Below, piece by piece: positions 42,779 through 43,306 of a stretch of 64,000 nt of DNA. Under the pieces are notes generated by a model. It had not been told where the DNA came from and made no database searches. It was given only the letters and a program-made list of their open reading frames with translations. The stretch comes from a virus (taxonomy: Duplodnaviria; Heunggongvirae; Uroviricota; Caudoviricetes), in the IMG/VR virus record IMGVR_UViG_2721755676_000001; one strand, given 5' to 3'. How positions within the stretch are numbered: position 1 is the first letter of the stretch; each line of letters starts with the position of its first letter. The position numbers were made by a program, and so were the translations under genes.

Positions 42779-42800
42779 AAGCGCCCATAGTGGGCGCTCG
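42779..42800. terminator. Hairpin AGCGCCCATAGTGGGCGCT (copy 1; identical copy at 43283-43305)
   Basis: Perfect 8-bp stem, followed by T-rich run on top strand. Confidence 0.5.
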
Positions 42801-42803
42801 ATT

Positions 42804-43034
42804 TTATTTATGTAAACTGATTTCAAATCCCATTTCTACAAACGCTTTTAACATTAAAAATATATCAGCGTCGTTCACGTCTACTTTTTTTCGCTCCTGG
42901 TCGCTCAATAAGTCAATTTTGCGCGTCGTTTCATCTATAAGCTCGACTGCGCGCCCAGCGTAACCAGCGATCCCAGCGATGCGACTAACATAATATTCAT
43001 TATGGACGTTAACGCCAGCGATAAGAACAAACAT
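42804..43034 (-). CDS. Hypothetical small protein (76 aa)
   Basis: Last gene of a minus-strand three-gene operon in AT-rich island. Confidence 0.45.
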   Translation of the reverse strand: MFVLIAGVNVHNEYYVSRIAGIAGYAGRAVELIDETTRKIDLLSDQERKKVDVNDADIFLMLKAFVEMGFEISLHK

Positions 43035-43054
43035 GATTAAGCTCCTTAAAAAAA

Positions 43055-43258
43055 TTAAATAGAATTTTGAAGTTTTCCGATTAATGCGCTTAAGCGTAAG
43101 TATTCACGTTTGCGCTTGCAATCTCGCTTGCTGTTAAGCAAATCAGAAAACGTAAAATTTAACTGGTCGCGTTGCGCGATCAAATCATCGATTAATTCTA
43201 GTTTATAAGCGCGATACTTTGCGCGATATTCCGCGCGGATCTTGTCATAGCTGACCAT
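43055..43258 (-). CDS. Hypothetical small coiled-coil protein (67 aa from MVSYDKIR)
   Basis: RBS AAAGGAG upstream; track ORF start at 43303 would read through the hairpin. Confidence 0.45.
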   Translation of the reverse strand: MVSYDKIRAEYRAKYRAYKLELIDDLIAQRDQLNFTFSDLLNSKRDCKRKREYLRLSALIGKLQNSI

Positions 43259-43306
43259 TTTCAAAGCTCCTTTAAAGCGCCCATAGTGGGCGCTTGATTC
43301 CATTAA

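Follow-up and report, generated by a model that had tools for sequence, protein, structure and literature searches.

Introduction

Phage morons, reportedly described by Juhala and Hendrix in 2000, are extra genes that sit between conserved neighbours in lambdoid phages. A classical moron brings a promoter of its own, and identical terminators on its two sides are not part of its definition. Integron cassettes consist of an ORF and an attC site and form arrays beside intI; the attC sites are imperfect palindromes of 57–141 nt and possess extrahelical bases, core sites and R/L boxes. Within operons, intercistronic stem-loops such as the REP sequence between malE and malF make mRNA stability differ between segments or cause attenuation.

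In T4-type phages, small ORFans are flanked by the promoter-early stem-loop (PeSL), a repeated intergenic stem-loop that acts as terminator or attenuator and ends in a Shine-Dalgarno sequence (Arbiol et al., 2010, PMC2839356; Comeau et al., 2014, PMC4122927). A gene that is flanked by two PeSLs in one phage is matched by a single motif in a close relative, and motif-to-motif recombination has been proposed to insert, delete and swap genes at safe intergenic sites (PMC2839356; PMC4122927).

Here we analyse a locus in a 64-kb stretch of DNA (64,000 nucleotides, referred to below as the window), which is an E. coli phage-plasmid of the SSU5/pHCM2/pMT1-like type. Phage-plasmids of this type are common and are also found in Salmonella Typhi, Klebsiella and Yersinia pestis. 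Neither the locus nor its hairpin was found mentioned in the open-access text of the phage-plasmid papers searched. We propose, with a probability of roughly 70%, that copies of a terminator stem-loop mark the borders of a variable slot, which takes up small accessory genes without promoters, and that the hairpin is the joint at which these genes are shuffled.

Results

One hairpin on both sides of two small genes

The 19-mer AGCGCCCATAGTGGGCGCT is present exactly twice in the window, at 42780–42798 and 43276–43294, and allowing up to three mismatches revealed no further copy there besides its own reverse strand. The chance expectation is 0.01 matches, and a count of two was reached in none of 100 shuffles. 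The homology is wider than the hairpin itself and extends over 34 nt with 88% identity (42778–42811 versus 43274–43307). Folding gives both copies a G+C-rich stem of 8–9 bp, a loop of 3 nt and a ΔG of ∼ −15.5 kcal/mol. The first-pass annotation had noted the same perfect 19-nt hairpin twice around two minus-strand genes of 67 and 76 aa, and both observations are borne out, the genes corresponding to ORFs 43055–43258 and 42804–43034. Of the positions it gave for the hairpin, 42779–42800 includes one copy but 43283–43305 is off by ∼ 8–11 nt from the other. Its proposed search for the hairpin elsewhere yielded no third copy in the window, so that a common genome-wide repeat is not the case.

By sequence and fold, the hairpin corresponds to the stem-loop of a predicted intrinsic terminator. 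The operon that it ends has three genes, namely one for a 216-aa protein, gene A (67 aa) and gene B (76 aa). In the direction of transcription its features are:

44034–44061, minus strand: predicted sigma-70-type promoter of the operon, TTGCAA-16 nt-GATAAT (consensus scan and sequence reading)
43307–43957, minus strand: conserved 216-aa anchor gene, phrog_1513, with the cassette slot always directly 3′ of it
43276–43294, minus strand: hp1, the proximal hairpin, 12 nt past the stop codon of the 216-aa gene, then UUUAAAGGAG
43055–43258, minus strand: gene A, 67 aa, phrog_6145, with an ATG start and AAGGAG at 43267–43272
43035–43054, minus strand: A–B spacer, consisting of a T7 run, AAGGAG and CTTAATC
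42804–43034, minus strand: gene B, 76 aa, phrog_1585, with AAGGAG at 43042–43047
42769–42799, minus strand: hp2, the distal hairpin, with UUUUUUCGUUUC; a canonical intrinsic terminator (terminator scan and folding)
42722–42753, minus strand: back-up terminator, AACGCGCCATTGATGGCGCGTT and U6 (terminator scan, folding and alignment)

The predicted promoter sits downstream of the terminator hairpin of an FljA-like gene.

The anatomy of an intrinsic terminator, a G+C-rich stem-loop with a U-tract after a stop codon, is found in the distal copy (42769–42799). The terminator scan reports 9 pairs, a loop of 3 and a T-rich tail for hp2, which has a U6 run, and folding gives −15.5 kcal/mol with z = −3.9; hp2 looks terminator-like on the plus strand as well. 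In some distant relatives (L107 and L152), the alignment shows the main hairpin once more, as an exact copy, at the position of the back-up terminator. Of the terminator, the proximal copy retains no more than the stem-loop and UUU. Without a U-tract, hp1 runs into the ribosome-binding site of gene A, which takes up the 17 nt between hp1 and the start codon, and the terminator scan of the minus strand did not call hp1 as a terminator. We infer that hp1 would serve as a read-through or attenuating stem-loop and as a recombination joint. The earlier suggestion of shared terminators therefore holds for the distal copy, with its U-tract, but not for the proximal one. The same division is seen in ∼ 90 relatives, where internal hairpin copies are followed by (A/G)TTTTAAGGA or TTAAAGGAG, that is, by a truncated U-run and a ribosome-binding site, and terminal copies by TTTTTCGTTTC.

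In a consensus scan, the stretch from hp1 to gene A contained no promoter-like site. Neither A nor B has an evident promoter, a copy of the terminator follows each cassette or cassette pair, and no hairpin copy lies near any promoter in the window. The A–B spacer has a folding energy of −4.1 kcal/mol, no different from shuffles, and contains no hairpin; its T-run varies between 5 and 8 nt among relatives (junction survey).

Distribution and conservation of the hairpin

Among the 2.9 million viral contigs of IMG/VR, the exact 19-mer was located in 94 stretches, essentially all of them beside a homolog of the 216-aa gene. The lone exception is a viral contig (L084) that has the exact 19-mer and no related genes nearby, which is compatible with chance or convergence. 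A repeat dispersed through the genome was also rejected on these grounds, since the IMG/VR stretches lie almost all at one locus; in the ∼ 100-kb relatives all hairpin copies fall within one stretch beside the 216-aa gene. Out of 5,426 E. coli genomes that are complete, 499 have a match to the hairpin, in most cases on plasmids of ∼ 105–115 kb. Two near matches were considered and discarded as copies of the element, each being a single terminator that is not identical to the hairpin: AGCGCCCATATGGGCGCT is a near-identical stem on ∼ 33-kb IncX-like E. coli plasmids, and AGCGCCTCTAGTGGGCGCT lies in a chromosomal prophage. An Rfam search of the hairpin region returned no family at the gathering score, and its weak matches were to the double terminator only.

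The hairpin, including its loop, is identical at 19 of 19 positions across lineages in which gene A has a dS of ∼ 1–1.8, and the exact hairpin is also found in relatives whose 216-aa homolog is only 49–62% identical. This identity exceeds the need of a purely structural terminator and hints at sequence-specific selection or concerted evolution, for which the proposed slot gives no account. In the more distant homologs of Serratia (63%) and Klebsiella (30%), the hairpin sequences have diverged while compensatory changes preserve the stem, which is how a plain terminator should behave.

The cargo of the slot varies

In ∼ 170 related loci the hairpin is kept and the cargo differs. It may be absent (one hairpin), or consist of A, B, a B paralog (B′), A+B, A+B′ or B′-hairpin-B (three hairpins). 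The main classes among 89 oriented loci are listed below; variants with an extra trailing or empty hairpin copy are also present and, the database records being redundant, counts of loci or plasmids do not equal counts of independent events.

hp-A-hp: 24 of 89 oriented loci
hp-A-B-hp: 16 of 89
hp-B-hp: 16 of 89
hp only: 14 of 89
hp-B′-hp: 4 of 89
hp-A-B′-hp: 4 of 89
hp-B′-hp-B-hp: 2 of 89

The insert sizes in a PLSDB sample match the same classes (246–250, 271–283, 308 and 497–507 nt), and ∼ 750 plasmids contain only three cassette families and one odd insert. The small genes seen in the slot are A, B, B′ and an insert from E. albertii. PLSDB plasmids carry A in 516 cases and B in 290, and the fused A–B junction in 125 only. 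Isolated phage SSU5 has hairpin-67aa-hairpin only and isolated phage Cyrano hairpin-76aa-hairpin only. Species representatives differ likewise: Y. pestis pMT1 has B′, Kluyvera has A and the slot of Buttiauxella is empty. The leader of B′ is long in pMT1-type loci. Hybrid B/B′ genes are present among the relatives, and the 76-aa family is also represented in unrelated ∼ 40-kb phage contigs without the 67-aa gene. Neither A, B nor B′ was found at a second hairpin-bounded genomic site. A chromosomal copy of B (P0062) was examined as a possible new site and rejected, its context being the same, with the FljA-like gene upstream and the hairpin downstream.

A small mobile cassette had been one of the two readings offered by the first-pass annotation. 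The variable slot and its hairpin-exact boundaries agree with it, but the slot holds two independent cassettes and not one two-gene unit. Mobility is likewise seen in that cargo is gained, lost and swapped, but the exact hairpin is bound to a single locus, and no recombinase was found among the proteins scanned at 40.9–44.8 kb.

Signatures of recombination

Two near-isogenic loci (L040 and L052) have flanks that are 92–100% identical and differ by a clean gap of 247 nt, which equals cassette A plus one hairpin. When L040 is compared with a third locus (L043), identity is 84–98% up to hp1 and 36–42% between the hairpins, and the two are homologous again past hp2. In mosaic genomes the 216-aa gene is of SSU5 type (84%), and B and the gene downstream are of E. 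coli type (91–98%), which places a breakpoint at hp1. There are also tandem empty units of 44 nt (hairpin, T-tract and spacer) in two or three copies, and in 16 of 71 loci the whole loop is inverted between the first and the last copy (CTA to TAG, and others). These empty units and inversions, together with a replaced second terminator, can be read as signs of hairpin-based rearrangement. Clusters in which the 216-aa gene is at least 99% identical have a uniform slot architecture, and exchange is thus infrequent. Simple unequal crossing-over would leave a hairpin inside the fusion of A and B. There is none, and an additional deletion has to be invoked; no remnant of a deleted hairpin was present in the A–B spacer of ∼ 20 A+B or A+B′ loci.

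The encoded proteins

Judged by their dN/dS values (0.06–0.15 for A and 0.18–0.33 for B), A and B are both real genes under purifying selection. Protein A is basic (pI 9.7) and predicted to be helical, and its match to DUF6899 is sub-threshold (E 0.015–0.023; 15.7 bits against a cutoff of 27). The name ‘CorA/MIT transporter’, which phrog_6145 inherited from the SSU5 annotation, was rejected as implausible for a 67-aa soluble protein. Protein B is acidic (pI 5.2), and its relatives form a small family of phage proteins of ∼ 75 aa. Searches of Pfam, PHROGs, PADLOC and PDB sequences and a profile search of 1.84 billion proteins gave only ‘hypothetical’ relatives for A and B, and no toxin, antitoxin or defence profile matched either of them in Pfam, PADLOC, NCBI names or PDB sequences. 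Structure prediction, proposed earlier as a check, was run on B and produced a generic ferredoxin-like β-α-β-β-α-β fold of low confidence (AF2, pLDDT 63). Its fold matches, among them Cas2/VapD-type folds, are non-significant (E at least 0.04).

The 216-aa protein is modelled with an N-terminal helical bundle and a C-terminal winged-helix-like domain (AF2, pLDDT 90.9). Fold searches with this model gave weak winged-helix matches and no recombinase, integrase, HUH or nuclease fold, and no recombinase domain was detected among the proteins scanned in the ∼ 4-kb neighbourhood (40.9–44.8 kb). The conserved upstream neighbour of the operon is the FljA-like gene (PF03614, E 1e-68); the FljA family acts on mRNA translation (PMC2652032).

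Discussion

A proposed terminator-delimited slot

Comparison of the relatives locates the cassette variation at the hairpin, and from this we infer how the slot may work. It lies at the 3′ end of a conserved operon of SSU5/pHCM2/pMT1-like phage-plasmids, made up of the predicted promoter, the 216-aa winged-helix-like gene and the slot, and in the window it holds two unrelated and independently distributed genes, A and B, side by side. Transcription would start ahead of the 216-aa gene, at the predicted promoter, and pass hp1, whose U-tract has probably been lost to the leader and ribosome-binding site of gene A and which may at most attenuate transcription or stabilize the upstream mRNA. It would then continue through A and B and stop at hp2, where the U-tract is kept and a second terminator lies behind. 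The repeat of 19–34 nt would be the joint for gain, loss and exchange of cassettes between co-resident or co-infecting phage-plasmids, likely by way of crossing-over (homologous or unequal) or of template-switching between the short repeats during replication. Where a crossover falls within the hairpin, the U-tract would remain with the downstream flank, so that the last copy would always terminate and internal copies would not. With the U-tract always at the last copy, new genes could be co-transcribed without needing a promoter.

Read in this way, A and B behave like moron-type accessory genes and not like a toxin-antitoxin pair. The slot is a compact and well-delimited example of the shuffling of small accessory genes in temperate phage-plasmids, and a predictable insertion slot in which to find new small phage genes. 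Two annotations are corrected, namely ‘toxin-antitoxin-like’ for the pair and ‘CorA/MIT transporter’ for the 67-aa gene.

Alternative explanations

Simple allele replacement could also come about by ordinary homologous recombination in the long conserved flanks, in which case the hairpin need play no part; exchange is infrequent, architectures being uniform in the clusters of at least 99% identity. That A and B are a type II toxin-antitoxin-like pair, in an operon insulated by identical terminators, was the other reading of the first-pass annotation. Like type II toxin-antitoxin operons, the locus has two short, adjacent, co-directional genes, 20 nt apart, that encode proteins of opposite charge (A basic, pI 9.7; B acidic, pI 5.2) on a plasmid-like element, and the model of B comes near Cas2/VapD-type folds, albeit non-significantly (E at least 0.04, pLDDT 63). 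However, the slot genes are inherited independently, in A-only, B-only, B′-only, A+B, A+B′, B′+B and empty forms. Each is mostly alone (516 and 290 plasmids versus 125 with the junction), phages isolated with just one of the two genes, A in SSU5 and B in Cyrano, are viable, B′ and B replace or accompany each other, and unrelated phages carry B-family genes without A. Pfam, PADLOC and PDB give no match to a toxin or antitoxin family, and the 17-nt gap between hp1 and A is a ribosome-binding site that leaves no space for a promoter or operator, and hence for an autoregulatory promoter. A toxin-antitoxin pair is therefore very unlikely, and already contradicted by the distribution of A and B. It is most unlikely of all that the two hairpins are unrelated terminators that became identical by convergence or chance. 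Similar GC-rich terminator stems do exist elsewhere (AGCGCCCATATGGGCGCT on ∼ 33-kb E. coli plasmids, AGCGCCTCTAGTGGGCGCT in a prophage) and one exact copy lies in the unrelated viral contig L084, but 0.01 matches are expected in the window, the identity reaches into the flanks (34 nt, 88%) and hairpin duplication tracks cassette number in ∼ 170 related loci, a comparative pattern by which this explanation is already refuted.

The strict conservation of the 19-mer, loop included, bears on two further explanations. The palindrome might primarily be a sequence-specific regulatory element, either an RNA stem-loop or a double-stranded DNA operator bound by an operon-linked protein, with copies kept to control the expression or stability of each downstream gene; candidate binders are the FljA-like RNA-binding repressor encoded just upstream and the winged-helix 216-aa protein. 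Loop conservation beyond structural need would fit, as would the tolerance of whole-palindrome inversion, expected of a symmetric dimer site, and the conserved upstream FljA-like gene, whose family acts on mRNA translation (PMC2652032). We nevertheless consider it unlikely, since the hairpin is always just past a stop codon and its last copy always has a U-tract, which is terminator anatomy; no copy is near any promoter in the window, Rfam gives no family match, the inversion alters the RNA loop (CUA to UAG), which counts against RNA-loop recognition, and regulation alone does not explain the variable cargo. Alternatively, a dedicated system of cassette exchange could recombine at the hairpin and capture promoterless gene cassettes there, either in the manner of an integron or by acting on the structure of the folded hairpin, with the conserved 19-mer possibly recognized by a phage-plasmid-encoded or host enzyme. 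Arrays of n cassettes with n+1 hairpins, clean indels of a cassette plus one site, promoterless cassettes each with its own ribosome-binding site, conservation of the site despite saturated synonymous divergence and beside 216-aa homologs of 49–62% identity, loop inversions that show the palindrome to be recombinogenic, and a conserved neighbouring winged-helix-like protein that is possibly DNA-binding all speak for such a system. Against it, the adjacent protein has no integrase, HUH or other recombinase fold, the proteins scanned at 40.9–44.8 kb contain no recombinase domain, and the perfect stem of 8–9 bp with its 3-nt loop is unlike attC. Moreover, A, B and B′ occur at no second hairpin-bounded genomic site, ∼ 750 plasmids hold only three cassette families and one odd insert, architectures are stable within lineages of at least 99% identity, the Serratia (63%) and Klebsiella (30%) homologs have diverged hairpins with compensatory stems, and near-identical stems are single terminators in IncX-like plasmids and a prophage. 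Such a dedicated system is thus quite unlikely. The same small credence applies to its specific form, in which the 19-nt hairpin would be a sequence-recognized exchange site and the locus a minimal, integrase-less ‘terminator integron’ of SSU5-type phage-plasmids. If true, promoterless cassettes would enter at the border of terminator stem and U-tract, a step in which the neighbouring winged-helix protein or a structure-specific enzyme of the host might assist, and each insertion would make the old terminator read-through while the new last copy terminates.

Comparison with known systems

The terminator-delimited slot shares with integrons its promoterless ORFs with one palindromic site each, an upstream promoter, and indels of a cassette plus one site. 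Unlike integrons it has no integrase among the proteins scanned at 40.9–44.8 kb, and the 216-aa helical/winged-helix protein and the FljA-like protein are its neighbours instead of the tyrosine recombinase IntI and attI; its hairpin, unlike attC, is a perfect 19-nt stem-loop (8–9 bp, loop 3) and, with the U-tract, a terminator. Only three cassette families are represented and there is no evidence of their movement to other sites. Like the malE/malF REP sequence, hp1 is a stable stem-loop without a U-tract between cistrons and could protect the 216-aa mRNA or attenuate downstream expression; the hairpin is no REP/BIME sequence, however, for it is not scattered over the host genome, and the terminator of its own operon has the identical sequence.

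The closest analogues of the slot appear to be the PeSLs of T4 and phage morons. As with morons, small accessory genes are present or absent among relatives, each followed by a terminator, between features that are otherwise adjacent; empty and occupied sites with identical flanks are both found. In contrast to morons, the slot cassettes seem to lack promoters and to share a transcript with the gene upstream, and one terminator sequence is reiterated. As with PeSLs, a repeated stem-loop terminator surrounds ORFans and a single motif marks the empty site in relatives. The repeat here lacks the strong sigma-70-like early promoter of a PeSL, its hairpin is only 17–20 nt from the start codon with no promoter-like hexamers between them, and its conserved part measures ∼ 19–34 nt, whereas a PeSL is ∼ 100 bp long. 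It is confined to one locus with 1–4 copies per genome, compared with ∼ 50 PeSL copies over hyperplastic regions, and belongs to a temperate siphovirus-type phage-plasmid and not to a virulent T4-like myovirus. Excised mini-circles are a further mark of recombination between PeSL motifs. With this locus, the concept of PeSLs and morons reaches another type of phage and a simpler motif.

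Organization of the locus

The 19-mer AGCGCCCATAGTGGGCGCT, a perfect stem-loop, occurs in exactly two copies in the window (chance expectation 0.01), and no further copy was found there when up to three mismatches were allowed. The copies flank two small genes, A and B, immediately 3' of the gene for a conserved 216-aa protein; every gene of the locus is encoded on the minus strand.

42732-42753, second terminator, 25 nt past the distal hairpin copy
42780-42798, distal hairpin copy
42804-43034, minus strand, B (76-aa ORF, RBS AAGGAG)
43055-43258, minus strand, A (67-aa ORF, RBS AAGGAG)
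43276-43294, proximal hairpin copy
43307-43957, minus strand, 216-aa ORF
44061-44034, predicted promoter-like site TTGCAA-16-GATAAT, upstream of the 216-aa gene
44255-44773, minus strand, FljA-like 'repressor of phase-1 flagellin' (PF03614, E 1e-68)

The first-pass annotation had described identical hairpins bracketing two minus-strand genes, and both copies and both ORFs are confirmed; its first interval contains the distal copy, its second was displaced by ~8-11 nt. Similarity between the repeats reaches 34 nt at 88% identity (42778-42811 versus 43274-43307). A and B are separated by a 20-nt spacer (T7 plus AAGGAGCTTAATC) in which folding revealed no secondary structure. Both are under purifying selection (dN/dS 0.06-0.33) and are, on this evidence, real genes.

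The distal copy is predicted to form an intrinsic terminator (9 pairs, 3-nt loop, UUUUUUCGUUUC tail; -15.5 kcal/mol on the transcribed strand). The 216-aa stop codon lies 12 nt before the proximal copy. What follows this copy is UUUAAAGGAG; a U-tract is absent, and the terminator scan made no call there. The promoter-like site sits after the terminator hairpin of the FljA-like gene. The simplest reading would be a single 216-A-B operon ending at the distal hairpin, all statements on expression being drawn from sequence. In nearly all relatives an FljA-like gene is conserved as the neighbour upstream of the operon. Since FljA-type proteins block translation of fliC mRNA (PMC2652032), the element could interfere with the flagellin of its host. 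Faint LSM/Hfq-like matches were obtained for the C-terminal half of the FljA-like protein.

Over the region, Escherichia phage PhiR41_1 is 97.5% identical; SSU5, Cyrano and 776 plasmids also match. The plasmids come from Escherichia, Klebsiella, Enterobacter, Yersinia and Salmonella, and nearly all of them are non-mobilizable and 100-115 kb in size. These matches indicate that the window is an SSU5/pHCM2/pMT1-type phage-plasmid.

Contents of the slot in relatives

We compared 79 IMG/VR loci found via the 216-aa protein with 94 stretches found via the exact hairpin, five species representatives and several more distant homologs. The content between the copies varies and the hairpin is kept. SSU5 carries only A between its hairpins and Cyrano only B. 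B', a paralog of B, is 43-49% identical to it.

Main slot architectures in 89 oriented loci (records are redundant and the counts are not independent events)
hairpin-A-hairpin: 24/89
hairpin-A-B-hairpin (window type): 16/89
hairpin-B-hairpin: 16/89
single hairpin, no cargo: 14/89
hairpin-B'-hairpin: 4/89
hairpin-A-B'-hairpin: 4/89
hairpin-B'-hairpin-B-hairpin (three hairpins): 2/89

Relatives whose 216-aa homolog is 49-62% identical add three forms, including hairpin-A-like-hairpin-hairpin; the others are tandem arrays without cargo, in which a 44-nt unit (hairpin, T-tract, spacer) is present two or three times. Two Klebsiella-type loci (L132, 1497-1603; L101, 8080-8142; 216-aa homolog ~49% identical) have a slot without a gene, made of two or three such units of exact hairpin plus TTTTTTGTTTCCGCTATAAAGCCACCA. 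In E. albertii p3RM15116 (L003, 2084-2731) a variant hairpin, TGCGCCCATATTTGGGCGCA, is followed by an unrelated 215-aa gene, B and a hairpin; the 215-aa protein (MKTFTVCESF...) has only a weak phrog_5987 match and none in Pfam. In a spread PLSDB sample the inserts fell into the same sizes (246-250, 271-283, 308 and 497-507 nt), with PLSDB records numbering 751 for the flanks, 516 for A, 290 for B and 125 for the fused A-B junction. By species, Y. pestis pMT1 has B', Kluyvera has A and Buttiauxella is empty.

Probable recombination at the hairpin

The cassette boundaries, judged from alignments, coincide with the hairpin. Near-isogenic loci with A (L040) and without cargo (L052) are 92-100% identical on either flank and differ by a clean 247-nt gap, comprising leader, A and one hairpin copy. 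When L040 is compared with a B locus (L043), identity is 84-98% up to the proximal hairpin and 36-42% between the hairpins, and homology resumes past the distal one. Several mosaic genomes join an SSU5-type 216-aa gene (84-85% to the window) to B and a downstream gene of the E. coli type (91-98%), which places the breakpoint at the proximal hairpin. Every array has a truncated U-run and RBS after internal copies and a full U-tract at the last copy only, the pattern that a crossover inside the stem-loop would leave.

Tandem empty units, B'/B hybrids, loop inversions and a terminator homologous to a hairpin copy are signs that the palindrome may itself be recombinogenic. The hybrid genes (L049-L051) carry the B' N-terminus (MVIFISGVNI...) on the rest of B, which implies recombination between the two paralogous cassettes. 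The 3-nt loop is repeatedly inverted as a unit (CTA/TAG, TTG/CAA, TTA/TAA, TCA/TGA), and in 16/71 loci the last copy is an exact flip of the first; examples are L038 (proximal TCA, distal TGA) and, relative to the window, L006, L012, L014 and L027. Whole-loop inversion of this kind would point to template-switching, or to inversion of the cruciform type, at a perfect palindrome. In L107 and L152 an extra exact hairpin copy takes the position homologous to that of the window's second terminator; this would indicate a duplication that later diverged, or else gene conversion between adjacent terminators. The A-B fusion has no internal hairpin; that copy would have been lost at some stage.

Alternative explanations

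The bracketed pair had been proposed to be toxin-antitoxin-like with shared terminators, or a small mobile cassette. The evidence is against the former. A and B are inherited independently (SSU5 and Cyrano, each with one of them, are both isolated phages), B and B' can coexist, and ~40-kb phage contigs encode a B-family protein without A. That family comprises 33 clusters of ~75-aa proteins, and the hairpins on those contigs are different and non-identical. Searches against toxin, antitoxin and defence profiles and solved structures gave no match for A or B. Structure prediction of B gave a ferredoxin-like model of low confidence, for which no structural neighbour was significant; A is basic and presumably helical. 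The 'CorA/MIT transporter' label on A's PHROG, taken over from an old SSU5 annotation, is not credible.

The proposal of a mobile cassette holds as far as a variable, hairpin-bounded slot is concerned; a dedicated mobile element is disfavoured. The exact hairpin is almost exclusive to this locus and is no genome-wide repeat, neither A nor B nor B' turned up at a second site, and architecture is uniform in lineages whose 216-aa gene is >=99% identical. The model of the adjacent 216-aa protein (pLDDT 90.9) predicts a helical bundle plus a winged-helix-like domain, and neither a recombinase nor a nuclease fold. In homologs further away the hairpin has diverged, with compensating changes in the stem (GAGCGCCAGAAATGGCGCTC in Serratia, AAAAAGCGCCCCATGGGGCGCTTTTT in a Klebsiella element). 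A nearly identical stem acts as a lone terminator in unrelated plasmids and a prophage, and no Rfam family matches. Yet lineages in which A has diverged by ~1-1.8 synonymous substitutions per site share the hairpin, loop included, at 19/19 positions, and it is exact also in relatives whose neighbouring protein is only 49-62% identical. Structural constraint accounts for the stem, and the second terminator has a conserved stem as well; it does not account for the loop. Concerted evolution, frequent inter-element recombination or sequence-specific recognition are possible causes, and for this reason we retain a small probability that the hairpin is a site-specific or regulatory element.

Other repeats in the window

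A motif with a palindromic core, AGAAAACAANTTGTTT, was found at ~13 sites within 18787-51945 (21 strand matches; 0.45 expected), e.g. 29006, 29735, 36983, 37031, 40011, 40918, 41679, 51905 and 51930, mostly just upstream of plus-strand ORFs. The copy at 41679-41694 precedes a 160-aa ORF converging on the cassette locus, and the 216-A-B operon has none upstream; the motif probably serves as a promoter or operator specific to the element. The 18-bp palindrome TAGGTAAGTNCTTACCTA (11 sites, 0.04 expected: 6142, 6469, 11664, 16348, 25899, 28112, 32163, 48581, 53872, 55379 and 57295) resembles a binding site for a dimeric regulator, with copies across the genome. Iteron-like repeats with core ACCGCTGACAGCATAC, at least 12 in number (7253-7794 and 8900-9010), flank and overlap a 404-aa minus-strand ORF (7792-9006), presumably a plasmid replication or partition region. 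Another duplicated stem-loop, a 57-nt AT-rich long hairpin closed by CCTGCTTC...GAAGCAGG, lies at 26546-26602 and 51815-51871 (82% identity, 25 kb apart). An 89-nt direct repeat within a coding region (57917-58005 and 58178-58266; 75% identity, 261 nt apart) is probably due to Ig-like domains repeated in tandem in a structural protein.

Comparison with known systems

The phage-plasmid literature that we searched holds no description of this locus. By position and distribution, A and B behave as moron-type accessory genes: like morons they are optional and come with a terminator, but they have no promoter of their own. Resemblance to integron arrays is in form only. Of the known systems, the PeSL of T4-type phages comes closest, a stem-loop terminator that ends in a Shine-Dalgarno sequence and flanks ORFans; where one phage has a gene between two motifs, a relative has a single motif, and insertion, deletion and swapping have been proposed to occur via recombination between motifs (PMC2839356, PMC4122927). 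By analogy the present locus would work alike, but it is not a PeSL: its repeat has no promoter, is only 19-34 nt long, and is confined to one site in 1-4 copies.
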